A DNA stretch of 64,000 bases. Origin: Chthoniobacterales bacterium (GTDB taxonomy: Bacteria; Verrucomicrobiota; Verrucomicrobiia; Chthoniobacterales; UBA10450). Below the pieces are notes generated by a model. The model did no database searches and was not told the origin of the DNA. It was given only the letters and a program-made list of their open reading frames with translations. Below are positions 26,018 through 46,986 of the stretch, piece by piece; the first letter of the stretch is position 1; each line of letters begins with the position of its first letter. The stretch is taken from positions 59,085 through 123,084 of the forward strand of contig JBBRNL010000003.1 of the NCBI GenBank assembly GCA_038230335.1, given 5' to 3'. The position numbers were made by a program, and so were the translations under genes.

Positions 26018-26301
26018 GCATGGTCGCGACTTAATATCCAAACGATCAGCAATTCTCTGTTATCGGAAGGCCGACCGCTGGAGGTAAATCCACAAACGTG
26101 CCGATGATGTCCCGAGGCGGCGACGGCGCACAGGTTTTGTGCTAAGACGATTAGCATTAGGCGAACTTCATGCGGGGGTTTCCCGTCGCCACCAACCGAT
26201 GAGTTGCTAGCGGTGCGGTGAGTACACAACTGCACCGCCAGAGTGCGGGGCAGATTAAATAGCCAAACCGGGTTGGATGGCGTTAGGCTTTGGCCGTATC
26301 A

Positions 26302-28467: not shown

Positions 28468-31400
28468 CGAAAACCCGCGATTATTCCGCGTTCCAAGTCG
28501 CGGACTTTTTCGTTCTGCGGACACCGCTGCTCTCTTTCGACGAATTTTTGAAATGGAGCGATGGCTTGAAGGCACCCCAGGCGATGAGCGATCCCGTGAG
28601 TTTGCCCGAAGCGATCTCGGCCGATCGGCAGAAACTTGGGCTCGCCCTGCGCGAAATCATGTCGCGGCCGGAGGTGCGGGAAGCGCTCTTCGTTGCATCG
28701 CCTGAACTGGAAGGAACTTTTTCTTTGTGGAACGGCCAGCCGGAGACCGAGCGAAGCCGTGGCATCGACCTATCGATGGCACGATATTTCTCCCGCATGA
28801 CGGGCCGGGCCACGCCTTTCGGCCTGTGCGCCGGTTGTTCCGTGGGAAAGATCGGTGCAGTCGCAGCTCTTAGGATCGCCGAGCGATCGAGCTGGAAAAA
28901 GCACACCCAGCTGAGTGTGGAATATTTGTCCGCCCTGGCCGATTCGTTAGGGAGCGATGCAACCGTGCGGGACGCTTTCCTCTATTGGCCGAATTCCAGC
29001 CTGTATCACATGGCTGGCCATTTTCGCTATCTGGAGCGATTCAAAAAGGCCGGCAAAGCGCACTCTTATCATCTGGTGGCGGTGGAAGATTCGGAAGCTC
29101 TTACTGAGATTCTTCAACGAGCCGGGAATGGCGCGCTTTTTTCCGATCTGGTTTCCTCCGTGACAACCGCTGAGATCTCTTCCGCCGAGGCCGCGGAATA
29201 TGTGCAGGACCTGATCGACAACCAAATCCTGATTCCAGATATCATCCCACCGGTCACGGGAGAGGAACCAGCCGAAGTTTTCGTGCAGCGCCTAAGAGAG
29301 CATCTTCCCACAAGTCCGGTGGCCGCCAAGATAGCTGCGGTCAACGAGAGTCTGGCCGCCATGGACCGCACGGGAGTGGGCACCTCCCCGCAGGCCTATC
29401 GCGACGTTGCAACTCTTCTTCAGTATCTCCCGGTCGCAGCCGAACTATCGCACTTGTTTCACATCGACATGATCAAGCCGGCGGGTGAGCTGACGTTGAG
29501 CCAGGCTGTCTTGAACGAGTTGCTGCACGGCGTAAGAATTCTTCATTCCCTAGCCCGGCCAGATGCAACTGCCGCTCTTCTGACGCCGTTTCGCCAGGCT
29601 TTCGTTGACCGTTACGACCGGGAGGCGGTGCCGATCCTGGAGGCGCTGGATGAAGAAGCCGGAATTGGATTCCCAGTCTCGCCCACCTTCGATGCAGCTT
29701 CTCCTTTGCTTAAAGGACTTACGTTTTCGAATCCGGTTTCTCCGACTCAGCCGTGGTCTACCCGCGAGAAATTCCTGCTCCATAAGTTAGGGGAGGCGCT
29801 CAGCCAAGGCGCTCAGGAGATCGTTCTCGACGAGCACGAACTGGACGAAATCGCTCACCCGACGCGATTCGATCTGCCGGATGCATTCGCGGTTATGGCC
29901 AGAGTAGCGGCCGCTTCGGAAGCCGCGATGAATGAAGGCGATTTCCGCGTCTTCGTCACCGGTGTCAATGGACCCTCCGGCGCATTCTTTTTCGGTAGAT
30001 TCTGCCATGCGGCGCCCGATCTTAGCGCGCACGTCCGCGAACACCTGCGCGCGGAGGAACAATTGCGCCCGCACGCCATTTTCGCCGAGATTGCATACTT
30101 GCCTGACGGTCCTTTTGGAAATCTGGCCGTGCGACCAGTCCTGCGGGAGCATGAGATTCCCTGCTTCACGCCTTCCGGCGTAAGTCACGATAAGCAAATC
30201 GAGCTGGCTGATTTATTTCTCAGGGTTCGCGGGGATCGTGTAATTCTTTTTTCAAAGAGCAGGGATCGCGAAGTGATTCCGCGGTTGACCAGCGCTCATG
30301 ACTTCGACCGACAAGGCCCGCCTCTGTATCGTTTCCTTTGTGCCCTGCAAGATCAGGGGACAGCGCCGCTCGGATGGGATTGGGGAGATCTGTGGGGCGC
30401 GCCATTCCTTCCCCGGGTCGTTTGCGGGAAAATCGTTTTGGCTCGTGCGCGCTGGTTGGTCACCGCCAAAGAGATCGTTCCGCGTCAACCGGATCCCGCC
30501 GCATCCTTCGCCGCCTTGCAGAAATGGAGGGCCGACCACCGGGTCTGCCGATTTGTCGCCTTGGTAGAGGGCGAAGGCGATCAGGCACTTGCCTTGGATC
30601 TCGACAACGTTATTTGCGTTGAGATTTTGCTCCGAAAACTGAAGCCCGGTGTGGAACTCGCCCTTCTCGAGATGTTTCCCAGTCCGGATCTGCTGCCCGT
30701 GTCTGCACCGGACGGTCGTTACACGCACGAGTTAATTGTCCCTTTCGTGCGGACGCGATTAACCGGTGTCCCGATTGTGCCGTCCTCAGCCAGGATTAAT
30801 CAGGGTCTTACCGTCGGGGCGCGGGTCTTCCCACCCGGTTCCGAATGGCTTTACGCAAAACTCTATTGCGGCCCGGTGACGGTGGATCGTTTGCTCCGCG
30901 GAATGGTCGCTCCGCTCGTAAAGGAATTCGCCGGCGCCGGCGCGATCGACCGCTGGTTTTTCATTCGCTACCGCGATCCGGATTGGCATTTGCGCCTTCG
31001 GTTTCACGGAAAGATTCGCGATTTGCAGGAGACGGTGCGCCCGGCCCTTGAGAAAGCAGCGGAGTCTTTGCTCGATGGCCGCGAAATCAGACGCGTTCAA
31101 TTCGATACCTATGAACGTGAGATTGAGCGATACGGGGGATTGGAGGCGATGCTCTTGAGCGAGCAACTGTTTCAGGCCGACAGCGAGGCGATTCTGTCGC
31201 TTCTCGATGGACTCGCACAATCTGGCGCAGATGCGGATCAGCGTTGGCGGGTAGCCTTGCTCGGCTTAGACAGATTATTGTCTGACTTTGAATTCAATCT
31301 CCCAACCAAGCGCGCGATCGTCGAAAATTGGAGGTTGGATCTGGCTCGGGAGTTCCAGGTGAATGCCGGGATGAAAAAAGAATTAAGCGATCGATTCCGC

Positions 31401-31694
31401 CAGGAGCGCAAAGCCCTCGAAGGGTGGCTTTCAAAACCATCAGAGGCGAGCGAGGCGTCCGCCATGAGCGAAAAAGTATTTCGACAACGATCGGGAGAGA
31501 TTATTCCGATCGTCGCGAGCCTGAAGACAATTGAAAAAACGAATGGGTTGACCTCCCCGCTCTCAATGCTGGCCGCTTCCTACCTGCACATGCACGTCAA
31601 CCGCCTCCTTATCTCTACTCATCGGGCACACGAATTGGTTTTGTACGACTTCCTTGTGCGCCTCTATGATTCGAAGATCGCTCTTGCTCGTTGA
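28464..31694 (+). CDS. lanB: full-length class I lanthipeptide dehydratase (LanB: glutamylation + elimination domains)
   Basis: ORF 28422..31694. The ATG at 28464 overlaps the upstream stop (ATGA). The N-terminus FQVADFFVLRTPLLSFDEF is typical of Lant_dehydr_N. The C-terminal WLYAKLYCG...IDRWFFIRYRDPDWHLRLRFHG is typical of the SpaB_C/elimination domain. The product is 1076 aa. Confidence 0.9.
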   Translation: MTKTRDYSAFQVADFFVLRTPLLSFDEFLKWSDGLKAPQAMSDPVSLPEAISADRQKLGLALREIMSRPEVREALFVASPELEGTFSLWNGQPETERSRGIDLSMARYFSRMTGRATPFGLCAGCSVGKIGAVAALRIAERSSWKKHTQLSVEYLSALADSLGSDATVRDAFLYWPNSSLYHMAGHFRYLERFKKAGKAHSYHLVAVEDSEALTEILQRAGNGALFSDLVSSVTTAEISSAEAAEYVQDLIDNQILIPDIIPPVTGEEPAEVFVQRLREHLPTSPVAAKIAAVNESLAAMDRTGVGTSPQAYRDVATLLQYLPVAAELSHLFHIDMIKPAGELTLSQAVLNELLHGVRILHSLARPDATAALLTPFRQAFVDRYDREAVPILEALDEEAGIGFPVSPTFDAASPLLKGLTFSNPVSPTQPWSTREKFLLHKLGEALSQGAQEIVLDEHELDEIAHPTRFDLPDAFAVMARVAAASEAAMNEGDFRVFVTGVNGPSGAFFFGRFCHAAPDLSAHVREHLRAEEQLRPHAIFAEIAYLPDGPFGNLAVRPVLREHEIPCFTPSGVSHDKQIELADLFLRVRGDRVILFSKSRDREVIPRLTSAHDFDRQGPPLYRFLCALQDQGTAPLGWDWGDLWGAPFLPRVVCGKIVLARARWLVTAKEIVPRQPDPAASFAALQKWRADHRVCRFVALVEGEGDQALALDLDNVICVEILLRKLKPGVELALLEMFPSPDLLPVSAPDGRYTHELIVPFVRTRLTGVPIVPSSARINQGLTVGARVFPPGSEWLYAKLYCGPVTVDRLLRGMVAPLVKEFAGAGAIDRWFFIRYRDPDWHLRLRFHGKIRDLQETVRPALEKAAESLLDGREIRRVQFDTYEREIERYGGLEAMLLSEQLFQADSEAILSLLDGLAQSGADADQRWRVALLGLDRLLSDFEFNLPTKRAIVENWRLDLAREFQVNAGMKKELSDRFRQERKALEGWLSKPSEASEASAMSEKVFRQRSGEIIPIVASLKTIEKTNGLTSPLSMLAASYLHMHVNRLLISTHRAHELVLYDFLVRLYDSKIALAR

Positions 31695-34773: not shown

Positions 34774-36861
34774 ATGAAAACTAGCAATGTTTTTTGCGCG
34801 AGCACAGTTCTCCTGCCTGCGTTGCTTTTTATTCCCTGTCATCTTTTGCTTGCGAAAGATAAGCCGATCCATCCGCCGGGCGACCATTTGACCCCTTCGC
34901 CGCTGTGCGCCTGGACGGATCAAGGCGTGATGAGAGGTGAAAAGCCGGACACGCAAATAATCGTGTCGAAGACCCATGTTGTACTCGTAACGACTGGTAG
35001 CTTGGGTTTCTTTGACAAGAAAGGAAACCGACTGGCGGTCGCATCGACTACGGATTTCTTCACTAACAACAAAACAAGAATGCCCGACGGCACGTTGATG
35101 TCGGATTTCCTCGTCGCGCATAAAGGTGAAAAACCGGTGTGGGGTTTTGGCGATTGCAAGGCCCTGTACGATCCGTATCGCAACCGTTTTTGGTTCCTCG
35201 CCACTTTTAACAACGCTTATCCAGGAGATGGCCAGATGTTCTGGGCCGTTGGTGTTTCAGATAGCAGTGATCCGACCCAGGGCTGGCGTACTTTTGTTCT
35301 GCCGGCTCATCGACGCGACGACAAACGCTATACCAATTCCGATTTTCCGATGCTCGGACTGGATAAGGAAGCGTTTTACGTTTCGGTCTGCGTTCTGATT
35401 GGCAATCCGGAGGTTCGCGCCCAGAACTACTGGTATGTGCTCGCCTTGAACGCCGACGACGTGGCCGCCGGAAAGGATCTGGCTTCAGTAAAAACAGCTG
35501 AACTCGATCACTGGCCCGATCCCGAAACTCATAAACCACTCGCGCGCGGAATTCTAATGCCAGCGATTCCAACCGGACTCAAAGAGACAAAGTCGGGAAT
35601 GAAGTTCGCCGGCGCTCTGGGTAAAAACACCGGCATTTGGTCGTTACGAAATCCGTTCAGTCTGCATCCGGAGATCCGAACGTGGACAGTGCCGATCAGC
35701 TCCCGCGGCCCGGGTTCAGCCGGCGTAAAACAACGACAGAAAGGAACGCCGGAACTCGCGCCGATTGCGTTGGGCGGTGCGATTGTGAGCGTGACCCAAT
35801 CGGGCGACGATCTGTATCTCGTTTCGCAAGACGTCATCCAAGGCGCAGATAAACACCCTCATACCGCCGTTCGCTTCAGTCAGGTGATATGTCCTGGGCC
35901 ATTCGGTCAGCCTCCCCGCGTCACCAAGGACATTAAGTATGGCGCCCAATCGCCCGAGGAACGGGACGCGAACCTGAACTACACCATTCCTTCCGCCATG
36001 ATTAACAAAAACGGCGATGCCATCGTCGTCGAAAACAGTGTAGGCCCGAGCGTCCATCAGGAAGCGCGCGCTTCGGCGATTTATCACGACAGCAGCTCGG
36101 CTGATTGGAGCGCACTAATTAAGACGGGCGAGGGCGCGAATACCGGCGGATGGGGCGATATTGCGAAGGCATCTCTGGATCCTTCCGATAACATCGGCAT
36201 CTGGGTTGCCACCCAATACGGCGCCGGTCATCACGCGCACCTCGCCATCGGCAAATTTTTGTCGGGACAAACAAGCCGCATCTCCGATGGCTGGCCCGGA
36301 TTATGGGCCAACACTGTCCAGGCCGCCACGGTGTGGCCTAACGGCAAACTTTATTTTTTCCGTGGCAGCGAATACATCCGCTACGACGTCGCGAGTAGCA
36401 AAGCAGATCCCGGATATCCGCAAACGATCGCAAAGGCATGGCCCGGGATTTGGCCGGAGGGATTCGATGCTGTGGCGGCCTGGCCTAACGGGAAGGCCTA
36501 CTTCTTTCGCGGCGATCAATATCTCCGCTACGACATCAGAACGGATAAAGTGGACGATGGCTATCCCAAGCCAATCACTTACGCCTGGTCCGGAGTATGG
36601 AAGGATGGAAAGATCGACGCGGTCGTTGTCTGGCCTAACGGGAAGGCCTATTTTTTCCGCGGCGATCAATACATTAGTTACGATATCAAGGCGGACAAGG
36701 CGGACGCGGGGTTCCCCAGGCCGATCGCGAATGATTGGCCCGGGCTTTGGGTCGATGGAGTCGATGCCGGAGTCGCTCTTCCGAGCGGAGCCGTCTATTT
36801 CTTTAAACGAAGCGATGTTTTCCGCGGCAAAGCAGCGGAGCTGCCCGCTGCCGCCCCTTAA
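34774..36861 (+). CDS. secreted protein with unknown N-terminal region and C-terminal four-blade hemopexin-like repeat domain
   Basis: Signal peptide. From about nt 36285 to 36830 there are four repeats of W-P-N-G-K-x-Y-F-F-R-G-x-x-Y-x-x-Y-D ... D-x-G-Y-P-x-x-I ... W-x-G-x-W, which is the hemopexin/MMP-type blade motif. Confidence 0.8.
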   Translation: MKTSNVFCASTVLLPALLFIPCHLLLAKDKPIHPPGDHLTPSPLCAWTDQGVMRGEKPDTQIIVSKTHVVLVTTGSLGFFDKKGNRLAVASTTDFFTNNKTRMPDGTLMSDFLVAHKGEKPVWGFGDCKALYDPYRNRFWFLATFNNAYPGDGQMFWAVGVSDSSDPTQGWRTFVLPAHRRDDKRYTNSDFPMLGLDKEAFYVSVCVLIGNPEVRAQNYWYVLALNADDVAAGKDLASVKTAELDHWPDPETHKPLARGILMPAIPTGLKETKSGMKFAGALGKNTGIWSLRNPFSLHPEIRTWTVPISSRGPGSAGVKQRQKGTPELAPIALGGAIVSVTQSGDDLYLVSQDVIQGADKHPHTAVRFSQVICPGPFGQPPRVTKDIKYGAQSPEERDANLNYTIPSAMINKNGDAIVVENSVGPSVHQEARASAIYHDSSSADWSALIKTGEGANTGGWGDIAKASLDPSDNIGIWVATQYGAGHHAHLAIGKFLSGQTSRISDGWPGLWANTVQAATVWPNGKLYFFRGSEYIRYDVASSKADPGYPQTIAKAWPGIWPEGFDAVAAWPNGKAYFFRGDQYLRYDIRTDKVDDGYPKPITYAWSGVWKDGKIDAVVVWPNGKAYFFRGDQYISYDIKADKADAGFPRPIANDWPGLWVDGVDAGVALPSGAVYFFKRSDVFRGKAAELPAAAP

Positions 36862-37166: not shown

Positions 37167-37600
37167 TGAGAGTTGTTCCGGCCTCTCTAATTTTCGGGAT
37201 AATGATCGCGGCCGCGGCCATTGGGCAGGAGGTGCAGCAACCCGCGGCCGGTTCGCCCGCGCGCAAAGCCATCCTGGATGGATTGCGCGAGAACGAAGTG
37301 GTGCGGAAACTTAGCGCGGAATGGAAGGCAAGAATTGTCTTCAGCCATGTCGCCGTCCGCCAGGCAAAAGATTGGGCGTGGGTCGTCGCTTCTCCGCAAA
37401 GCGAGGATGAGAAACACATCATCGAACCGCTTACCAGCGTCATGCGCGAAAAGGTCGGCCACTGGCAGGTGGTGGAATTTATCTCGGACGAAGTTGCGCC
37501 GGCCGACAATCCGGAAGTAGCTTATCGCAGTTGGCGCTCGCAATTCATCGGGCGGCATCCCGACTGCCCGGCGAGGATATTTCCCGAGAAATTCGATTAG
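37166..37600 (+). CDS. hypothetical secreted protein
   Basis: ORF 36983..37600. The ATG at 37166 (MRVVPASLIFGIMIAAAAIG) overlaps the preceding stop (TGATG). Confidence 0.5.
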   Translation: MRVVPASLIFGIMIAAAAIGQEVQQPAAGSPARKAILDGLRENEVVRKLSAEWKARIVFSHVAVRQAKDWAWVVASPQSEDEKHIIEPLTSVMREKVGHWQVVEFISDEVAPADNPEVAYRSWRSQFIGRHPDCPARIFPEKFD

Positions 37601-37602
37601 CA

Positions 37603-38616
37603 ATGAGTCACCCAACCAACCTGAATAATATGTCGATCCAAAAGATCATTCCGCTCCTCTTCGTCCTCGGTGGCTTATCCACCGCATTCGGTTCCGATCC
37701 CATCACCGTCGACATCCCCGGTGCCAAAGACAATCCGTTGCTGAAGCGCTATGAGGGCTCAGTTATCTTCCAGTATTCGCAAAAGGAGTTCGATGAGTAC
37801 TCGATGGCGCTGGGGAAGGGATTGAATCCTTCCGGCGGCGGCAAGTCGAATGAGAAAGAACAAACGGTCGAAGGCAAAGTCACCCGTATCTCCTATTTTG
37901 CTCCGAACGGGCGCTCCACCCTGGAGGTTTTCCGGAACTATGAGAACGACCTGAAGGCCAAGGGATTTCAAACCCTCTTCAGCGCCAGCAAGGAAGACTT
38001 GGGCTACGATTTTCAAGGCCGTTACGCCGGCATCTACTCTCAGATCTTCGAATACTCCGACTTCAACTCCCGCTATGTCGCAGCCAAGCTTTCCCGTCCG
38101 GAAGGCGATGTTTACGCGACGGTGTTTGTTACTGGCTACACCAACGGGACCACCGCCGATGTTAAGTTGGAGAAAAATCAAACCATCGTGCAGGTGGACA
38201 TCGTCGAATCCAAGCCGATGGAAGAAAAAATGGTCAGCGTGACCGCCGAGAAAATGGCCTCGAGCCTGCAGGACACCGGCCGCGTCGCGCTCTACGGGAT
38301 TTATTTCGACTTCAGCAAGGACGAAGTAAAACCGGAATCCGCCGCCACCTTGGAGCAAATCGCGAAATTGCTCGGCTCGGATGCGACCATGAAGCTTCTT
38401 GTCACTGGCCATACCGATAACGTCGGCAGCTTTGAATCCAATCGCACGCTGTCCGAACGCCGCGCCCAATCGGTCGTGCGCCAGCTGGTATCGCACTACA
38501 GTATTTCCACCGAGCGGCTGTTTCCGTTCGGGGTCAGCTTTGCCGCGCCCGCCGCGCCTAACGATAGCGAAGAAAATCGCGCCAAGAATCGACGGGTCGA
38601 ACTCGTCCGCATGTAA
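37603..38616 (+). CDS. OmpA-family (peptidoglycan-binding C-terminal domain) protein
   Basis: ORF 37531..38616, with start MSHPTN or MSIQKIIPLLFVLGG. The C-terminal LLVTGHTDNVGSFESNRTLSERRAQSV...NRRVELV is the OmpA_C motif. Confidence 0.85.
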   Translation: MSHPTNLNNMSIQKIIPLLFVLGGLSTAFGSDPITVDIPGAKDNPLLKRYEGSVIFQYSQKEFDEYSMALGKGLNPSGGGKSNEKEQTVEGKVTRISYFAPNGRSTLEVFRNYENDLKAKGFQTLFSASKEDLGYDFQGRYAGIYSQIFEYSDFNSRYVAAKLSRPEGDVYATVFVTGYTNGTTADVKLEKNQTIVQVDIVESKPMEEKMVSVTAEKMASSLQDTGRVALYGIYFDFSKDEVKPESAATLEQIAKLLGSDATMKLLVTGHTDNVGSFESNRTLSERRAQSVVRQLVSHYSISTERLFPFGVSFAAPAAPNDSEENRAKNRRVELVRM

Positions 38617-39586: not shown

Positions 39587-40600
39587 CTACGGAGGAGTAT
39601 CCGCTTCCGCTGCGGGTTTGACTCGAACGCTATCGTCTTCTCCGACTTCCACGTTCACTTTGCTAGCGCCGGCCTCCTTGGCCTCGATGAACTGATTGGC
39701 AAAGAGGTCCGAGAGGATCCGCTCCAGTTCGCGGATGCCGAAGCGGCTCACTTTTTCGTTTGCCATGAGCGCGCGCAAGATGAGTTCAGGCGCGACAAAA
39801 TGCACTTGGAGGCCATATTCGCCCGCGAGTTTGGCGATTTTCAGGAGCGCAATTTCCGCCACCACCATGCCTTTGAGCGGTTTGAACACGTAAACTTTGT
39901 CGATGCGCCCGAGAATTTCCGGCCGGAAAACCTTGCCTTCGGCCAGCTCGCCCTTTACGGCGTTGACCATCTCGTGGTAATCCGTCATTTCGGCTTGGAT
40001 TTTTCCGATTGCCTCCGCGTGCGCGTTGCTTGTGAGAATAAAAATGCATTGCGTGTAATCGACTGCTTTGCCACTGCCCTGCTCGGTCAGGCGCCCTTCT
40101 CCGAGAAGTTGCAGGAAGAGATCAAAGACCGGCGGGTAAGCTTTTTCGATCTCATCGAAGAGAATCAGGCGGCGGGGATTGGCCATTACCGGGCGCGTCA
40201 GCTGTCCGCCCAAATCGCTCCCCACGTAACCGACGGGCATGCCGATGAGGCGCGCTTTCGCTTCCACGTTGCTGAATTCGGAACAGTCGAAACGCAGCAT
40301 CGCTTTCTCATCCTTGAACAAATACTCAGCGATCGCTTTCGCCAGTTCGGTCTTGCCGGTACCAGTTGGTCCCAGGAAAAGCAGGTTCGCGATTGGTTTG
40401 TCTTTTTGCTTTTTTGCGGCCTGCAGACGAATCAGCTTGGCAACATCTTCAAGGATTGGGTCCTGGCCCTTGACGCGTGAGCGAAGGTGCGCAAGCAAGG
40501 CTGCCTCGTCGATCTTCGTGCCCAGGGTTTTATTCTCTCTGTCATCTATCATGGCTTTGAGCTGTTCCCAGTCGGTCATGCCTTGGATTGGATCGGCCAT
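39587..40600 (-). CDS. stand-alone ClpB-D2-like AAA+ ATPase (AAA_2 + small D2 domain), soluble
   Basis: Walker A is LLFLGPTGTGKTELAKAIA, the pore loop is GMPVGYVGSDLGG, Walker B is LILFDEIEKAY and the sensor region is FILTSN. The C-terminal small domain contains FGIRELERIL. Confidence 0.85.
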   Translation of the reverse strand: MADPIQGMTDWEQLKAMIDDRENKTLGTKIDEAALLAHLRSRVKGQDPILEDVAKLIRLQAAKKQKDKPIANLLFLGPTGTGKTELAKAIAEYLFKDEKAMLRFDCSEFSNVEAKARLIGMPVGYVGSDLGGQLTRPVMANPRRLILFDEIEKAYPPVFDLFLQLLGEGRLTEQGSGKAVDYTQCIFILTSNAHAEAIGKIQAEMTDYHEMVNAVKGELAEGKVFRPEILGRIDKVYVFKPLKGMVVAEIALLKIAKLAGEYGLQVHFVAPELILRALMANEKVSRFGIRELERILSDLFANQFIEAKEAGASKVNVEVGEDDSVRVKPAAEADTPP

Positions 40601-40710
40601 ATGTTCGTTAGTGCTTCGGCTGGCTCATTATCTTAAATGAAGCAGGATTTCGCCGCTTCGCAGCAGGATTGCGGTTGGGGCGAGATCAGACATTCTGGCA
40701 TCGCCACTTG

Positions 40711-42432
40711 TTACGGCTCCACATTCACGTCGCCGCCCCCGTGCACAGTGTCCGCGTGATTCATCCCGAGGGAGCCTCCCTTCATGGTCAGTCTCCCTCC
40801 CGGGTAAGCGGCTATGCCAAAAATCGTATTTTGCTGGACGGTGCAATCGTTCAAAGTGATCGTCCCGCCGCTGCTGGGATCGGTGCCGACTCCGGCCTGC
40901 GCACCGCGCGCGTTTTCTTTCATTGTGCAACCGGTCGCGGAAATATTTGCTCCGAGGAGCGCCACCAGGCCGTTGCCGCTACAGCCTATGATTGTGGTTC
41001 TGGTCAGATCGATATTCGTGCTGGCGTCCCGGCTCTGAATTCCGGCCCTGCTCATATCGGAAATCTTACAGTCGTTCATCGTCAACTGACTGCCGGCAGC
41101 GGCCGCTGCGCCATCCTGCTTGGCGCCGAGGAATTTAACCTTGTCGAGTTCGCCCCTGGCGCTCGGTGTTTTGGCGAACCCGAGAATCAGGCCGCACGCC
41201 CCCGAATCGCTGATCGTGCTTTTCGATGCCTTCAAATGTGCACCAGCGCCAACGAAGAGCCCATTTTGGAGCGATTCGGCAATGGTACAATCGGTCAGGG
41301 TAAGGGTCCCCTTGTCATAGGCGATCACCGCATGGGAGAACCCCGAGATCTTCTTATTGTCGGTGATCAATCCGGTTCGATGCATCGCGACCTTTTCCAA
41401 GGTGAGCTGGCCCTCCTGGCACGCGACCAATCCCTGCTTGTTATCGTAGAACTTATCGTCTTGCAAAAAGGCTTTCGCCTTACTTTTGACGGAAATCATG
41501 CCGCTACTGGTATTGCTGGTTTCGCCGGTGACGCCGTTCTCTCTAAAGGTGCTTCCAATGATGTTTAATGTCGCCCCTTCCTCGGCGACGATGACGGCGG
41601 TGTTCCCATGGAACTGGCAGGCTTTCAGGGAGGCCGAAGCAGGCCCGCCAATTACGCCGACCGTAATGCCCTGCCCGTTAGGCAGTCCCAGCTTCTGAAA
41701 AACGCAATTGTCCGCCTGCAACTGGACTCCGCCAAGGGCCTCAATACCCCAGTGTGCATCGGACAAATTACACTGGCTGAGAGCGACGTGAGCAGTCCCC
41801 TCGCATTTTAGGCAACAGCCAGTCCCGGAGGTCTGAAAAGACGAGCCCTGCGCGCGGAGCGAGGCCTTTTCAGTGAGATAGACATCGAATTTACTTTTCG
41901 TGGCGGTCGAGCAATTTGTCATCTCGACGCTTGAATCGCCCGCGATCCGGATGGCGGGACCTTCCCCTGCCACATCGAAATTGATCGTCAGATTTTCGAG
42001 CGACACTTTTTTTCCCGAAATGGAAAGGCCCACGCGTTTTGGGTCGTTAAAGCGCATGGTGGCGACCCCTTTGTCCGCCGGGGGTCCGATGAAGCGGGCG
42101 CTGACGTTTATTTCGCAATTTCCGGTGTAATCGCCCGGTCGCAGGGTGACGACATCGCCATCCGTTAGGCTGGCGACGACTGCCGCCAAATCAGCGCCGT
42201 CGGCGTCGCGCGCGCCGGAGGCGTCGAGGATCCATTCTCCGCGCATTTTTGGAGTGATCCTGCGGGGAGCAGGCTGAGCTGTTCGCGCCGGAGATTCCAC
42301 CTTGTTCGTGCCAGTGCCCGAGGGCGGTCCCGTCTTGTTCGTCGCGTTGTAGACGATTGTTCCGGCGGAAAGCAGCGCAACCAGCAGGCAAAGCTGAAAC
42401 CACTGGTCTTGCAGGAGGGCCCGCCAATTCAT
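40711..42432 (-). CDS. membrane-anchored right-handed parallel beta-helix repeat protein
   Basis: An N-terminal TM (WFQLCLLVALLSAGTIVY) is followed by about 20 repeats of 22-25 aa of the type x-L-x-(L/M)-x-(D/N)-C-x-(I/F) (e.g. LTLTDCTIAES, LTMNDCKISDM, ITLNDCTVQQN). This is typical of PbH1/pectate-lyase-fold coils. Confidence 0.75.
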   Translation of the reverse strand: MNWRALLQDQWFQLCLLVALLSAGTIVYNATNKTGPPSGTGTNKVESPARTAQPAPRRITPKMRGEWILDASGARDADGADLAAVVASLTDGDVVTLRPGDYTGNCEINVSARFIGPPADKGVATMRFNDPKRVGLSISGKKVSLENLTINFDVAGEGPAIRIAGDSSVEMTNCSTATKSKFDVYLTEKASLRAQGSSFQTSGTGCCLKCEGTAHVALSQCNLSDAHWGIEALGGVQLQADNCVFQKLGLPNGQGITVGVIGGPASASLKACQFHGNTAVIVAEEGATLNIIGSTFRENGVTGETSNTSSGMISVKSKAKAFLQDDKFYDNKQGLVACQEGQLTLEKVAMHRTGLITDNKKISGFSHAVIAYDKGTLTLTDCTIAESLQNGLFVGAGAHLKASKSTISDSGACGLILGFAKTPSARGELDKVKFLGAKQDGAAAAAGSQLTMNDCKISDMSRAGIQSRDASTNIDLTRTTIIGCSGNGLVALLGANISATGCTMKENARGAQAGVGTDPSSGGTITLNDCTVQQNTIFGIAAYPGGRLTMKGGSLGMNHADTVHGGGDVNVEP

Positions 42433-43601
42433 TTTTCTTCGCTCGGAGAGATTTCGAGTTCGCCGGTCGGTCCGACAGCGAGATCGAGTCTTTTTATACC
42501 GCGGGCCCGAGCCCGACCGATGGCCGGGCTGGTTTTCATTTGCACGTAGGCGCCGAGTTGGCGCACGCCATATTGCTTGAACTCCTCGTTGCGCTGCACG
42601 GCCTCGAAAATCAACTCCGGTGCGGCATGTCGAACTTCAATTCCGTAGGTCCGCCAGTGACGCGCCAGCTGTAGGCAGGCGACTTCTGCCACATGCAGGG
42701 GCGAAAGTTCATCCATCAGAATTACGGACGACCAGCGCGCAAGAAAGGCCCGGTCGAATCCAGCTCCTTCCACGAGCGCGTCGCGGCTCCGTCCCATCCA
42801 GGCGACCGCATCGTTTCCCGTTTCCGCGCGGATTTTTCGCAGCGCTTCCACTCCCGCGTTGCAGGTGGCGAAGAAGACGCAGCCGCTGAAATCGACCATC
42901 CGGCCCGAGCTTTTTTCGCGGCATTCGGCAGTATCCAGGATATCGTAGAGACAATGCTGCAAATCGCGATGCGCCTTTTCTAATTCGTCCAAAATGATGA
43001 CGCGTCGGGGATTTTGTAGCACAGGTCGGGTGAGGGTGCCGCCTACTTCATAACCGGCCCGGCCCGGCGGCGGTCCGATCAAGGTGAAGACGTCGTCGGG
43101 GTGCTTGTATTGGTTCATGCGCAGGAGGACGGCTTCGGAATCCGGATAGAGCGCGTCGGCGATCAATTGGCCAAGAAAAGTTTTTCCCGTTCCCGTGGGA
43201 CCAATGAGGAAGAATGCGCCGAGCGTGCGGCCAGGCGTGGCCAGGGCCAGATTGGCCTGCAGTTGGGCGAGGATGGAGTCGATTGCTTCATCCTGGCCGC
43301 GAACATTTTCTTTTAGCCACGGACCGTAAGGGGAAAGATCGAGCGCGGCCAGTTTTGTATAGTCGAGTGCTTCGGCCGTTGCCCGGTCGACGCGCCGTTG
43401 TCGCCAAACCAGGCATCCCATTCCGACTAACGACACCGCCAGAAGTGATGGTGCGAAAAAATGATTAACTTTATTGAGCCCTAAAATCGCTCCCGCGACC
43501 ATGACCAGGAGCATGGCGAAGAAGAGGGGGCTCTGCGCCGCTTCCTGGGATTGGCCTGCCTGATCCGCAATTCTGGCGCTCCGCCCGGGACCTGGATTCA
43601 C
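42429..43601 (-). CDS. membrane-anchored ClpB-D2-like AAA+ ATPase (two N-terminal TM helices)
   Basis: The TM helices are LFFAMLLVMVAGAILGL and LLAVSLVGMGCLVW. Walker A is FFLIGPTGTGKTFLGQLIA and Walker B is VIILDELEKAH. The pore-loop position reads PPGRAGYEVGG, so the first Tyr-Val of GYVG is replaced. The stop overlaps the start of the beta-helix gene. Confidence 0.8.
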   Translation of the reverse strand: MNPGPGRSARIADQAGQSQEAAQSPLFFAMLLVMVAGAILGLNKVNHFFAPSLLAVSLVGMGCLVWRQRRVDRATAEALDYTKLAALDLSPYGPWLKENVRGQDEAIDSILAQLQANLALATPGRTLGAFFLIGPTGTGKTFLGQLIADALYPDSEAVLLRMNQYKHPDDVFTLIGPPPGRAGYEVGGTLTRPVLQNPRRVIILDELEKAHRDLQHCLYDILDTAECREKSSGRMVDFSGCVFFATCNAGVEALRKIRAETGNDAVAWMGRSRDALVEGAGFDRAFLARWSSVILMDELSPLHVAEVACLQLARHWRTYGIEVRHAAPELIFEAVQRNEEFKQYGVRQLGAYVQMKTSPAIGRARARGIKRLDLAVGPTGELEISPSEEK

Positions 43602-44329
43602 TTGACGACAGTTTCAACGTCGCCGCTCTGGCCCGTAGCCAGTGGTCCCGTGCGCGCGGAATTGCCGCTGGCTGAATGAACGCCCGGTGTCACGAAACCT
43701 TTTGGGCCGGCATTCTCCACCGTGAAATGGAAATGAGTGGCCACTCCGGGCGTACCGGGGATCGGGGAACCGATATGTCGTTCGGGTGTCAGAACATCTT
43801 CAGCGATAACGACGCCAGCCTTTGAAACCTGCACGTGGATAATGTGTCCCTGCTGTTGGTTCTCTTCTGTCAGGCGCTGCGTGTAAAGTTTGGTTTCGCC
43901 GGAAAGAATCTGGCTGCGCGTTGCCGCGTCTACCTTCGCGAGGGACGGTGGAATCTCGCCGCGGGCCAGGGCGGCACGCGCGGCCGCGGTGGCAGGGTAA
44001 TCAACGTCGGCTTCAGTCAGGGTGAGCGTTTGTTCCTGTTGGACGTTTTGAGCTGTCGACGAGGGATGTGTCCAATGGGAAAGCGAATTCTGTTGCCAAG
44101 CCACTCCGGAAACCGCCAGCGCCGCGGCCAGAGCGGCGGCCAGCAGCCACCGCGACCGCTTTTTGCGAATTCGCCCGTGTTGCTCATCGGTTCGCCCCGG
44201 TTTTTCCGTGTACGATTTTTGAAGCGCGCTGGCGCCAGTCATGGCCGGTCTGTCCCGACCCGCGACCGGGCCCAAATCTTTAGCTGCACCGCGCGATTCC
44301 GGTCCCTGCGGATCTGGCTTCGAGTCCAT
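43598..44329 (-). CDS. single-pass membrane protein, unknown function (first gene of the cassette)
   Basis: 243 aa. A basic cytoplasmic N-terminus, the TM WLLAAALAAALAVSGVAW and an extracytoplasmic domain of about 150 aa. The stop overlaps the start of the next gene by 4 nt. Confidence 0.6.
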   Translation of the reverse strand: MDSKPDPQGPESRGAAKDLGPVAGRDRPAMTGASALQKSYTEKPGRTDEQHGRIRKKRSRWLLAAALAAALAVSGVAWQQNSLSHWTHPSSTAQNVQQEQTLTLTEADVDYPATAAARAALARGEIPPSLAKVDAATRSQILSGETKLYTQRLTEENQQQGHIIHVQVSKAGVVIAEDVLTPERHIGSPIPGTPGVATHFHFTVENAGPKGFVTPGVHSASGNSARTGPLATGQSGDVETVVK

Positions 44330-44568: not shown

Positions 44569-44964
44569 CTACGCTGCGGCCAGCGCTGAGGCTTTCTTGT
44601 TTAGAATGGCCATGGCTTGTTGCAGCTCGTCAAAATCAAACGGTTTGGACATCATCATGTCCACATTCAGCTCTTCGTAAGCGCGAATATCCTCGTCCGA
44701 GAGATGGGCCGACAGAACGAGGATCTTGCCCCCAAAGCTTTTCTCTTTTAGTCGACGCACGAGCTGGAGACCCGTCATGCGCGGCATACGATGGTCCGTA
44801 ATAACAACGTCAAAAGGTCGGGCCGTAGCGCCGATCTTAATGAGTGCCTCCCAGCCATTCACCGCCCTGACTACTTTGGCTGCTGGACCTCCCAGCACCA
44901 TGGCAATCATGTGCGCCAGGGCTTTTTCATCCTCCGCAACCAAGATCCGTAAAGGGTCACTCAT
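44569..44964 (-). CDS. single-domain response regulator (CheY-like receiver)
   Basis: 131 aa. ILVAEDE, the phospho-acceptor region VVITDHRMPRMTG and ILVLSAH are present. Confidence 0.85.
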   Translation of the reverse strand: MSDPLRILVAEDEKALAHMIAMVLGGPAAKVVRAVNGWEALIKIGATARPFDVVITDHRMPRMTGLQLVRRLKEKSFGGKILVLSAHLSDEDIRAYEELNVDMMMSKPFDFDELQQAMAILNKKASALAAA

Positions 44965-45171
44965 AATCCCAAGGAATCAGCAGGACGCGGGCCGCAGGTT
45001 GCGCCCGATGGCTGCTTGTTGAAGGGGCGGGTGCCGAGTTTGTCACACCCTCCGTATCGCGCCGCGCGTTAGCGCTCCGTACGGCATTTTTCTGCGCGCC
45101 CCTTCCTATGCGGTCGTTTTTGCCTCTCCATAAGGCTGAAAGACTTCCACGAAACGAATCTTACTTTCGTG

Positions 45172-46986
45172 ATGAGAATCTTGTTAACGAGCTTATTTGG
45201 ATTCGTCGCGCTGACCGCAACACTTCAGGCGAATTCTCCCAAGCATCGTGAATCGGGGAAATTGGACCAACCAACCATAACTAAGCCGGTGTCGGTGGCA
45301 GCGCCACCACTGGGACCGGTTAATGTGGGGGCGAAAGGCAACGAACCACTTATCGCAACGTCACCAGACGGGACCCTTTACATCAGCGCTCTCCAACATA
45401 TCTACCGTTCGACCGACGCAGGGGCGACTTGGACGGAGCTGCCCGGGCCTATTTACGCCTCAACTCTGAATCTAGCCTCCGATAGTTCCATTTCGGTTGA
45501 TTCGGCGAACCGACTCTACTTCACTTTCGATTATCCCTACGCGGGCACGACTGCCGTATGTACGAGCGACGATCATGGTGACACATTCACCTGCGATCCG
45601 GCGGTCGTTCCAGGCGGCACCGATCGGATGTGGGTCCTGGCGCCGACGACCACGGCGGCGTACGAGGTAACCAATCAGGGTTTATACGAAACCGCTTTTC
45701 TACAAAGTACAGACCGGGGCGCGACCTGGATTGCGAAGTCGGTTGGAAGCGGGCTTTTGGAACCGCAATCAGGTCCGCTTCTACAAAAGAACTGCAGCGG
45801 GGATGTTCTCCAACCGGTCAAAGTTTACGGCACGACGCCCCAGGAAGTGCCCGAACTCAAGCTTTACGTTTACCATCCTGCGGCCACGGGTTCGGTTATT
45901 TCGGATATTCGGTCGACGGGTCTTCCGCTTCCCTACGCTCTTCCCAGCGCGGCGATTGGGCAGGATGGCGAGCTTTGGGTTTCAACCGAGGAAACGAACC
46001 CCGCCGGGGGAAGACAAATCGTGGTGGCCCGCTCCACGAACGAGGGCGCCACTTGGGCGCAGCTGCCTCCTATTCCAGAAACCACGACGGGCACGGCAAT
46101 TTTTTCCTGGGTGGCGGCGGGATCGCCTCACCATGTGGGAGTCCTTTTCTATTACACGTCGGATAACGGGGACCCAGGCGTGCTCACAAATGCCACCTGG
46201 TCGACGGTGTGGGCAGAAACCTTCAACGCGGACAGTGCGGTTCCTGTTTGGGCTGTGAGTACGATCGAGAGCCCGATTCATGTCGGTCCCCTGTGCATCG
46301 CTGCCAGTTGTATGGGAACAAACAGATTCGCCGGCGACTTCATCAGTTCTGTGATCGATTCGAGCGACACCGCCCATCTCACCTGGATGAGCCAGGCGAA
46401 CGGCACGGGCGCTGTCTCGATTCGTTATGCCAAAGTGCAGGCGGGTTTACCTTCGACCTTTGCCACTATTCCATGTGCGCTTACACCGACGGTTATTTCA
46501 CGAAAAATGCACGGCGCTTTTGGCCCGTTTGATATTCCTCTTCCGCAGATTGGACGGAACGGAAGCGAGTGTCGCGCCGGTGGATCGGCCGGGAATTATC
46601 AAATGATCGCCACGTTTCCAACGGCCGTAACGGTCGACCATGCCGCGGTCGTCTCAGGCACGGGTCGTGTCGACAGCACGAGCGTGAGTGGCAACGACGT
46701 CATCGTGAACCTGAGCGGAGTGGCGAATCAACAGACGATTAACGTTACTTTGTTTGGGGTACACGGCGGATCGACTGCGGCGGATATTACCCTGGGGATG
46801 AGTATCCTGGTCGGTGACACGAATGGCGACGGTGTCGTCAACTCGGCTGATATCAGCCAAACAAAGTCGCAATCAGGAACGGTGGCCACCAATTCGAATT
46901 TTCGCGAAGATCTGAACGTCGATGGCGGCATTAATAGCGGCGATATTTCCCTGGTAAAATCGAAGTCCGGCACCGCGCTTCCGTAA
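45172..46986 (+). CDS. BNR/Asp-box beta-propeller protein with C-terminal dockerin-type repeats, secreted
   Basis: The Asp-boxes are STDAGATWT, STDRGATWI and STNEGATWA. The C-terminal pair of Ca-binding loops is GDTNGDGVVNSADI and DLNVDGGINSGDI (dockerin type I pattern). Confidence 0.8.
   Translation: MRILLTSLFGFVALTATLQANSPKHRESGKLDQPTITKPVSVAAPPLGPVNVGAKGNEPLIATSPDGTLYISALQHIYRSTDAGATWTELPGPIYASTLNLASDSSISVDSANRLYFTFDYPYAGTTAVCTSDDHGDTFTCDPAVVPGGTDRMWVLAPTTTAAYEVTNQGLYETAFLQSTDRGATWIAKSVGSGLLEPQSGPLLQKNCSGDVLQPVKVYGTTPQEVPELKLYVYHPAATGSVISDIRSTGLPLPYALPSAAIGQDGELWVSTEETNPAGGRQIVVARSTNEGATWAQLPPIPETTTGTAIFSWVAAGSPHHVGVLFYYTSDNGDPGVLTNATWSTVWAETFNADSAVPVWAVSTIESPIHVGPLCIAASCMGTNRFAGDFISSVIDSSDTAHLTWMSQANGTGAVSIRYAKVQAGLPSTFATIPCALTPTVISRKMHGAFGPFDIPLPQIGRNGSECRAGGSAGNYQMIATFPTAVTVDHAAVVSGTGRVDSTSVSGNDVIVNLSGVANQQTINVTLFGVHGGSTAADITLGMSILVGDTNGDGVVNSADISQTKSQSGTVATNSNFREDLNVDGGINSGDISLVKSKSGTALP

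Follow-up and report, generated by a model that had tools for sequence, protein, structure and literature searches.

A conserved four-gene cassette combining two ClpB-NBD2-type AAA+ ATPases with two predicted bitopic proteins in a Chthoniobacterales genome

Introduction

Quality control of membrane proteins depends centrally on AAA+ motors tethered to the membrane, such as FtsH, Msp1, Bcs1 and Torsin. FtsH(-HflKC), Msp1/ATAD1 and Bcs1 are N-terminally anchored machines of the classical AAA clade (PF00004) that pull membrane proteins, and FtsH carries an M41 protease in addition; to our knowledge, none of the three works with a soluble paralogue as a second ATPase or with a periplasmic receptor that can be swapped. 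Torsin, which has the single-pass partners LAP1 and LULL1, is a membrane-associated AAA+ protein related to the second nucleotide-binding domain (NBD2) of the Clp proteins; it is lumenal, lacks the pore-loop aromatics and has its Arg finger supplied by a partner. We know of no described Hsp100/Clp-NBD2-type motor anchored in the bacterial inner membrane. The subject of this paper is a four-gene cassette (genes G1 to G4) that is predicted to include such a motor and that lies on the minus strand of a 64,000-nucleotide stretch of DNA from Chthoniobacterales bacterium (assembly GCA_038230335.1, contig JBBRNL010000003.1, positions 59,085 to 123,084 of the forward strand). This whole stretch is hereafter called the window.

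Bitopic proteins link an energy source in the cytoplasm or the inner membrane to a periplasmic or lumenal domain in NosDFY, ExeAB/GspAB, TonB-ExbBD and the Hrd3(SEL1L)-Hrd1-Cdc48 system of endoplasmic-reticulum-associated degradation (ERAD), the coupled domains being a beta-helix in NosD, Sel1 repeats in Hrd3/SEL1L and a Pro-rich spacer in TonB. An NBD2-type ring that functions without the first ring domain (D1) is described, in PMC9934407, for human CLPB/Skd3, a protein of the mitochondrial intermembrane space with N-terminal ankyrin repeats. CLPB/Skd3 was also among the PDB sequence matches of the two ATPases of the cassette.

The cassette is real, conserved and, as far as can be determined, undescribed, with known parts in a new arrangement and a function that we infer. 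No description of it was found in PADLOC, Pfam, NCBIfam, PDB or the full-text literature, which does not prove that none exists. A first-pass annotation of the window, made from the sequence alone, had also known of no system with this composition, and these resources place the cassette nowhere.

A conserved unit of four genes

The components, in the order of transcription, are as follows.

43598..44329, minus strand: G1, predicted bitopic protein (243 aa, open reading frame) with a disordered cytoplasmic tail, one transmembrane (TM) helix and a periplasmic helix plus beta-sandwich
42429..43601, minus strand: G2, predicted membrane-anchored ClpB-NBD2-type AAA+ ATPase (390 aa; Pfam AAA_2)
40711..42432, minus strand: G3, predicted bitopic protein (573 aa) made up of a conserved N-terminal anchor, a linker of low complexity and a right-handed beta-helix
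39587..40600, minus strand: G4, predicted soluble ClpB-NBD2-type AAA+ ATPase (337 aa), the most conserved component

The minus-strand open reading frames of the window bear out the four co-directional genes and the 4-nt overlaps of the first-pass annotation. G1 and G2 are joined by a GTGA start/stop overlap at 43598-43601 and G2 and G3 by an ATGA overlap at 42429-42432, both read directly in the sequence, and G3 and G4 are spaced by 110 bp. At the level of the reading frames, G1, G2 and G3 are shown to be translationally coupled.

A scan of 185,579 species genomes with the G2 alignment gave 117 relatives and returned 79 loci, all from metagenome-assembled genomes (MAGs). Homologues of G2 were numerous in metagenomes as well, the best 120 being at least 56% identical. 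The 79 loci span Chthoniobacterales/Udaeobacter-type Verrucomicrobiota, Gemmatimonadota, Pirellulales/Thermoguttaceae (Planctomycetota), many Elusimicrobiota, Binataceae, a 'Proteobacteria' MAG and Oligoflexia/Bacteriovoracaceae (Bdellovibrionota-like MAGs), at least six phyla overall. A G4 orthologue (57-94% identical) adjoins G2 on the same strand in 68 of the 71 loci with enough flank, downstream of G2 in 56 and upstream in 12, and lies within 5 kb in two more. G1 is found upstream of G2. A 4-nt overlap joins the G2 stop to the following gene in 48 of 72 loci, and in 63 of 72 this junction lies between -4 and +3 nt. The gene order is permuted to G4-G1-G2-G3 in Gemmatimonadota, while other Verrucomicrobia have the same neighbours as the window.

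The components also diverge in step: pairwise identities are correlated between G2 and G4 (r=0.90, 1,953 pairs) and between G1 and G2 (r=0.83). Mean pairwise identity across phyla is 64% for G4 and 52% for G2, the G2 family being 45-83% identical, and falls to 32% for G1. These comparisons show a real conserved unit, its four components inherited together and co-diverging. As an alternative, the adjacency of unrelated genes by chance, or an annotation artefact, has a practically negligible probability, being refuted by the 68 of 71 syntenic loci in at least six phyla, the conserved 4-nt overlaps and the correlated divergence. One condition that would have refuted the first-pass annotation, a lack of synteny in any other genome, does not apply, for synteny is seen in many. 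A fifth conserved gene was not found, since clustering of the neighbours yielded nothing present in more than 12 of the 79 loci; the recurrent clusters, each within that number, encode ABC, aminotransferase, tetratricopeptide repeat (TPR), kinase, HlyD and ALAD proteins. The window carries all four features that are proposed to define the cassette, namely G2 with a TM hairpin, an adjacent G4, an upstream G1 with the Y-T-P motif and a TM helix, and a downstream G3 with the DxWFQ anchor.

In one verrucomicrobial MAG (L004/L024, 1-16 kb), the cassette stands between two gene groups, one with an 826-aa Hsp70-like protein, a TPR protein and a Ser/Thr kinase, the other with an FHA-GAF-guanylate-cyclase protein and a full-length ClpB.

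The two ATPases

The elements of G2 and G4 on which the comparison turns are listed below.

43404..43532, minus strand: predicted N-terminal two-helix TM hairpin of G2, residues 24-66 (24-42 and 48-66), with a conserved GLN motif and an invariant Pro in the short outer loop
43179..43202, minus strand: Walker A GPTGTGKT of G2, read in the sequence and invariant in the G2 family alignment
43053..43064, minus strand: pore-1 loop position of G2, G-R-A-G (G-Y-V-G in ClpB), without an aromatic residue, from the alignment with the D2 domain of E. coli ClpB
40349..40372, minus strand: Walker A GPTGTGKT of G4, read in the sequence and placed by the ClpB alignment
40220..40231, minus strand: pore-1 loop G-Y-V-G of G4, read in the sequence

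Both proteins match Pfam AAA_2 (PF07724) above its cut-off of 27 bits (91.2 bits for G2, 143.6 bits for G4), and the solved structures nearest to them are the D2 domains of ClpB and ClpC. G2 aligns with residues 563-821 and G4 with residues 561-848 of the 853 of ClpB; since the alignment is confined to this part (about 561-848), the N-domain, D1 and the middle domain are absent from both. G2 and G4 are predicted Hsp100/Clp NBD2-type AAA+ domains, each a single module, as had been annotated at first. Direct reading likewise returned the annotated Walker A and the Walker B DE(L/I)EKA in both ATPases (LDELEKA in G2, FDEIEKA in G4). Based on the alignment with E. coli ClpB D2, Walker A and B, the sensor-1 Asn, the Arg finger and the sensor-2 GxR are conserved in both, and Walker B is intact in nearly all members of the two families. 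The TM-anchored nature of G2, also proposed in the first-pass annotation, was retained, whereas its single helix has to be replaced by the hairpin.

The two ATPases appear to divide the labour, for the catalytic motifs are intact in both, G4 always has a pore-loop Tyr or Phe and G2 mostly lacks one. The aromatic residue is kept in 66 of 66 G4 sequences. The corresponding G2 position is non-aromatic in 50 of 61, the remaining 11 having YQG and all belonging to one Elusimicrobia subgroup, in which G2 of L048, L052, L061 and L075 retains the Tyr as GYQG. For the window, the threading pore loop had been assigned to the soluble ATPase only, in agreement with GYVG in G4 and GRAG in G2.

Two further features of the ATPases were observed. 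C217 and C227 of G2 are invariant in 33 G2 sequences from several phyla (HCLYD...C[RH]EKSSG) and flank the pre-sensor-1 hairpin; neither cysteine has a counterpart in ClpB or G4, and the pair may have a redox or metal role. A conserved N-terminal motif of G4, M.D...[ML]T[DN]W..L (40556-40600), superficially resembles the G3 anchor motif [DN]xW[FV]Q[LV] (42394-42432); this likeness may have arisen by chance or reflect a docking element common to both.

Neither the G2 nor the G4 alignment has a conserved column for the ClpP-docking tripeptide [ILMV]-G-[FLM], and no peptidase domain or protease gene was found in the cassette. A ClpB-like remodeller needs no protease, and both ATPases carry full catalytic motifs. 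The N-terminal anchor of G2 would turn the ring entry to the membrane, as in FtsH and Msp1. These features would suit a disaggregase or dislocase that works close to the membrane on unrelated clients in general, among them membrane proteins that are misinserted or aggregated; G1 and G3 would then be no more than regulators or adaptors reporting the state of the envelope. This explanation is considered quite improbable: the cassette is rare, with its 117 relatives among the genomes scanned, and it coexists with full-length ClpB, while a swappable periplasmic receptor and paralogous cassettes, both described below, would be needless for general quality control.

G3 and its exchangeable head

Two parts of G3 have to be told apart.

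42343..42432, minus strand: G3 anchor, residues 1-30, MNWRALLQDQWFQ plus TM helix, with the family consensus [KR]xL[LI][KE][DN]xW[FV]Q
40717..42237, minus strand: predicted beta-helix ectodomain of G3, residues 66-572, from the AlphaFold2 (AF2) model; a lineage-specific exchangeable module

The AF2 model of G3 (mean predicted local distance difference test score, pLDDT, 90.8) contains a helix at 10-33, a disordered part at 28-53 and the beta-helix at 66-572, whose roughly 56 strands give about 19-20 coils. The 573-aa protein with an N-terminal TM helix and about 20 beta-helix coils had thus been described correctly at the outset. Pfam Beta_helix scores 143 bits against a cut-off of 25.9. The Foldseek neighbours of the beta-helix, all with low TM-scores, are PL6 lyases, tailspikes, AlgG and Ag43, every one of them an extracytoplasmic protein that acts on glycans or serves as an adhesin. 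A NosD identity was rejected, with TIGR04247 at 16.9 against a cut-off of 300, no nos genes nearby and a Pfam NosD match of 29.8 bits that is outscored by the generic Beta_helix. Judged by its profile matches and its predicted model, G3 of the window is a generic beta-helix protein.

Whatever its C-terminal domain, the gene that follows G2 opens with the G3 anchor motif in all phyla. The family order is a 10-aa tail motif, a TM helix with a conserved Ser and a Pro/Ala/Ser/Thr-rich linker, which by a crude measure comprises about 30 to more than 150 low-complexity residues; the density of Lys and Arg in the 10-aa N-tail is about double that behind the TM helix. The head that follows is a beta-helix in Udaeobacter-type and other Verrucomicrobia, Elusimicrobia and Oligoflexia, a Sel1 domain of 10-22 repeats in Planctomycetes and one verrucomicrobial lineage, and a propeller (Ycf48/BNR-type, PSII_BNR) in Gemmatimonadota. 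Tandem duplicates of G3 occur in L046 (~9.5-11.7 kb), L047 (~9.2-11.9 kb) and L086 (7102-10205), where the DxW[FI]Q anchor is present in each copy and either two beta-helices or two Sel1 domains serve as heads. Between G3 and G4 of two Sel1-type cassettes, an extra conserved protein of about 305 aa with no obvious TM helix was observed (L086 10196-11113, L023 10560-11486).

Given swapped heads beside ATPases that remain 57-94% identical, it is the N-terminal membrane anchor of G3, and not its fold, that would be the conserved partner of these ATPases. This bears on the idea, in essence that of the first-pass annotation, that the ATPases form a biogenesis or quality-control chaperone pair dedicated to G3, which they would insert, hold, unfold or clear. 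G3 always follows G2 directly and is translationally coupled to it, its conserved N-terminal tail could serve as a recognition tag, and NBD2 rings alone are competent unfoldases and disaggregases in human CLPB/Skd3, as described in PMC9934407. A fold-specific chaperone is nevertheless unlikely, because an all-beta helix, an all-alpha Sel1 domain and a beta-propeller interchange beside conserved ATPases. Besides, the periplasmic domain lies beyond the reach of cytoplasmic ATPases except via the anchor, and the equally conserved G1 is left unexplained. On balance the dedicated chaperone pair is given a low probability; of the original idea, G3 stands as a partner through its anchor, and the beta-helix falls as the target.

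G1, a new protein family

Two elements of G1 are singled out here.

44198..44215, minus strand: cytoplasmic motif S-Y-T-E-K-P of G1, about 20 residues before the TM helix, with the family consensus x-A-Y-T-P-L/P-P
44093..44149, minus strand: predicted TM helix of G1, residues 61-79, from a hydropathy scan, with an AF2 helix at 60-74

The cytoplasmic tail has about 55-65 residues, and AF2 gives a pLDDT below 50 for residues 1-57 and of 80-93 for the beta-sandwich at 147-242. On average 3.8 Lys/Arg are found in the 15 residues before the TM helix and 0.75 after it; the topology is shown by this predicted charge bias to be N-in. The periplasmic part of the family consists of a conserved helix (ADxDxxAT) and the beta-sandwich, with EDGD and DGGGGVT motifs in most lineages. 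G1 evolves fast and yet conserves its short cytoplasmic motif, in which Y40 is invariant in the Udaeobacter-type alignment and the Tyr and Pro are at least 90% conserved across phyla. An Elusimicrobia subgroup (L048, L052, L061, L075) has a mini-G1 of about 105 aa with only the tail, a P-Y-T-P motif and the TM helix, and this reduction points to the cytoplasmic motif and the TM helix as the core of G1. The same subgroup carries an extra single-TM protein of about 310 aa upstream. Kinase genes were noted near the cassette in about six loci, an observation of interest given the conserved Y-T-P motif.

G1 had no match in Pfam, PADLOC or PHROGs, and Pfam was also empty for 10 diverse G1 proteins; among 1.84 billion proteins, only 84 representative clusters matched it. 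Foldseek against PDB gave no fold relative at E<0.01, with weak resemblance to PLAT-like proteins and MmpS5, and the sole marginal match (0.02) of the G1 profile to PDB sequences was the AftD beta-sandwich. An anti-sigma factor reading was rejected (NF052375 at 18.1 against a cut-off of 100, with no sigma factor gene in the cassette). Judged by these searches, G1 is a new protein family.

Distribution, mobility and a possible role in defence

The distribution of the cassette is patchy and discordant with phylogeny: G4 of the window is 72% identical to a Gemmatimonadota G4, as against 62-67% to some other verrucomicrobial G4 proteins. Several MAGs carry two paralogous cassettes (L046/L051, L047/L050, L012/L020, L017/L082). 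Because of this distribution and these paralogues, the cassette looks like an accessory, horizontally mobile module. The GC content of the cassette (0.56-0.60) equals that of the window (0.54-0.60) and therefore gives no sign of recent transfer. A phage or plasmid origin was rejected: tblastn against 72,556 plasmids and 50,697 phages found no true homologues, only ClpB-like matches of at most 36% identity without the TM part; 1 of 2.9 million IMG/VR contigs carries the cassette; and PHROGs matched only a generic 'ATP-dependent protease' family.

On the patchy distribution, the paralogous cassettes and the diversifying ectodomain, though not on the flanks, an accessory or conflict role is a live rival. 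In an explicit form, which is regarded as doubtful, the cassette would be an envelope-surveillance module for conflict or defence, the variable G3 head sensing a foreign periplasmic cue (phage part, bacteriocin or competitor glycan) and passing a signal via G1 and G2, with the ATPases as an effector that unfolds essential or invader proteins or triggers growth arrest. The discordant similarity, the cassette pairs and the tandem G3 duplicates would fit such a module, as would the fast divergence of the ectodomain and G1 beside conserved motors and a genomic context that varies even among close relatives. The best PADLOC matches point the same way, being DolB of Dodola (7e-20) and PDC-M37B (9e-32) for G4 and the same families for G2. 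The PDC-M37B match, however, is limited to the AAA core (G4 residues 32-202, G2 residues 130-255), and G1 and G3 gave no PADLOC match at E<=0.1; for these reasons no known defence system is matched. Membership of Dodola and of PDC-M37 was rejected, as their partners DolA and PDC-M37A were not found and the DolB match, too, covers the AAA core only.

Usual effectors such as a nuclease, a protease, an NADase or a pore-former are absent from the cassette, and the conservation of the ATPases is unusually high for a component of an arms race. No defence genes are present in the window flanks or among the recurrent neighbours, so that the earlier suggestion of a defence-type module 'given its flanks' had to be abandoned. 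The near absence of the cassette from plasmids, phages and viral contigs also speaks against defence.

Proposed mechanism

The reading preferred here, tentative as it is, is that the cassette encodes a device driven by ATP, which would pull on the cytoplasmic tails of G1 and G3 or extract them and would recognise its targets through the G3 ectodomain. The four genes would encode one self-contained inner-membrane AAA+ machine. G2 would form a ring beneath the membrane with its entry face directed membrane-ward, where it most likely acts as a dock or gate, because its pore-loop aromatic is usually lost. G4 would join G2 as a stacked second tier, like D1 and D2 of ClpB, or in mixed rings, and serve as the threading motor. 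The clients would be cytoplasmic tails that belong to the bitopic proteins of the cassette itself, above all the long tail of G1 and perhaps the short one of G3, a proposal made because the Y-T-P tail of G1 and the short tail of G3 are the only conserved cytoplasmic handles. Pulling with ATP would either exert force through the membrane on the periplasmic assembly of G1 and G3 or extract and reset that assembly, while the G3 ectodomain, a beta-helix in the window, would face the periplasm and recognise an envelope glycan or protein. Overall, this would amount to an ATP-powered trans-membrane puller or dislocase akin to FtsH- and Msp1-type motors, without a protease and with a built-in swappable receptor. 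The lack of a ClpP-docking tripeptide and of a protease in the cassette supports this proposal. So do the synteny, the correlated divergence and the coupled reading frames, the difference between the two pore loops, the charge bias of G1 and G3 and the disordered G1 tail, the short cytoplasmic motifs conserved in G1 and G3 although both proteins otherwise evolve fast, the modular heads and long linkers of G3, and the extracytoplasmic neighbours of its beta-helix.

Several points weigh against the tail-pulling device. The topology of G3 is based on a weak charge bias and on the domain type, and it is possible that G3 has a cleavable signal peptide or that its ectodomain is cytoplasmic. Its 10-aa tail is short for engagement by a pore. 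The pore-loop Tyr kept by G2 in the Elusimicrobia subgroup means that the split between dock and motor is not universal. For true retro-translocation, the cassette would lack a multi-pass channel component. Finally, no output beyond mechanical work is recognisable, and several other roles would fit equally well.

A more far-reaching claim, which is judged unlikely, is that the cassette represents a new class of trans-envelope energy transducer, in which a split, membrane-docked Clp-NBD2 motor would use ATP in place of the proton-motive force to pull bitopic proteins that reach envelope targets with long linkers and swappable heads. If true, this would be a bacterial counterpart of ERAD-type retro-translocation, with a Sel1 receptor and an AAA+ extractor, or an ATP-driven TonB-like force generator.

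Genomic surroundings in the window

A gene for a stand-alone response regulator (receiver gene, 44569-44964, minus strand) lies 240 bp upstream of G1 on the same strand, and the only sigma-70-like site of the region (45158-45187) is upstream of this regulator gene. A response regulator beside the cassette is not conserved in the other loci. Promoter and terminator scans gave signals no higher than the shuffled expectation, and no Rfam match was obtained in the cassette region.

Apart from the response regulator, the flanks hold class I lanthipeptide genes, genes for a TPR protein, a hemopexin-repeat protein, an OmpA-family protein and a dockerin-tailed protein, and genes for a short-chain dehydrogenase/reductase, a phosphoesterase and a pyridoxal-phosphate-dependent decarboxylase. 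The class I lanthipeptide genes (26290-31694, plus strand), about 8 kb from the cassette and with no evident link to it, encode a 725-aa LanC-like cyclase fused to a flavoprotein domain, followed by a 1090-aa LanB dehydratase. The other proteins with observed features are a 695-aa protein with C-terminal hemopexin repeats, unusual for bacteria (34774-36861, plus strand), a DUF4892+OmpA protein (37531-38616, plus strand) and a 605-aa protein with a dockerin domain at its end (45169-46986, plus strand).

Significance

The cassette probably belongs among the membrane-tethered AAA+ remodellers, as a new arrangement. As a natural 'split' two-ATPase Clp system, it bears on the origin of double-ring Hsp100 proteins and on the division of labour between their tiers. 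It also defines G1 and the G3 anchor as new protein families, and the combination of one conserved anchor with interchangeable periplasmic heads suggests a general route for coupling cytoplasmic ATP to periplasmic events. The cassette occurs mainly in abundant uncultured soil and groundwater lineages (Udaeobacter-type Verrucomicrobiota, Gemmatimonadota, Elusimicrobiota and Planctomycetota) whose envelope biology is poorly known. Since the four genes total less than 5 kb and form a self-contained unit, they should be directly testable in a heterologous host.

Comparison with known systems

G2 and G4 share NBD2 and the small domain with ClpB, ClpA and ClpC, and G4 shares the GY[VI] pore loop as well. 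In contrast to these proteins, the modules of the cassette reside on separate polypeptides, one of them behind a TM hairpin, and have no N-domain, D1, middle domain or ClpP-docking loop. Their scores are far below the cut-offs of the ClpB, ClpA and ClpV families. Identity with the ClpB disaggregase was rejected, with scores of 222 (G4) and 130 (G2) against an NCBIfam cut-off of 1232 and only ClpB 561-848 covered. ClpV/TssH was rejected at 139 and 166 bits against a cut-off of 885, with no type VI secretion genes among the neighbours, and a partner of a ClpA/ClpC/ClpX-type protease on the lack of a conserved docking tripeptide column and of a peptidase domain in the cassette.

Among defence systems, Dodola and PDC-M37 have in DolB and PDC-M37B a ClpB-like AAA+ protein comparable to G4 and G2, whereas their components DolA and PDC-M37A are unmatched by G1 and G3. 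NosDFY, ExeAB, TonB and ERAD offer an analogy only, for homology with them is limited to generic repeat folds, and the cassette is without ABC, ExbBD, channel or ubiquitin components.

The closest working analogies, to be taken as leads and not as tests, appear to be CLPB/Skd3, Torsin with its partners, and FtsH, Msp1 and Bcs1. CLPB/Skd3 is one protein with ankyrin repeats, whereas the cassette has two paralogous ATPases and two bitopic partners and no ankyrin domain. Like Torsin, G2 has no pore-loop aromatic and has invariant Cys residues; unlike Torsin, it has an Arg finger of its own, and its ATPase domain must be cytoplasmic. Membership of the Torsin family was rejected (Pfam Torsin at 21.6 and 22.2 bits against a cut-off of 27), as was that of FtsH, with weak PF00004 matches (24-30 bits) well below AAA_2 and no peptidase domain. 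As in FtsH, Msp1 and Bcs1, the N-terminal TM anchor of G2 would put the ring under the membrane, and these motors provide the best functional analogy for tail-pulling.

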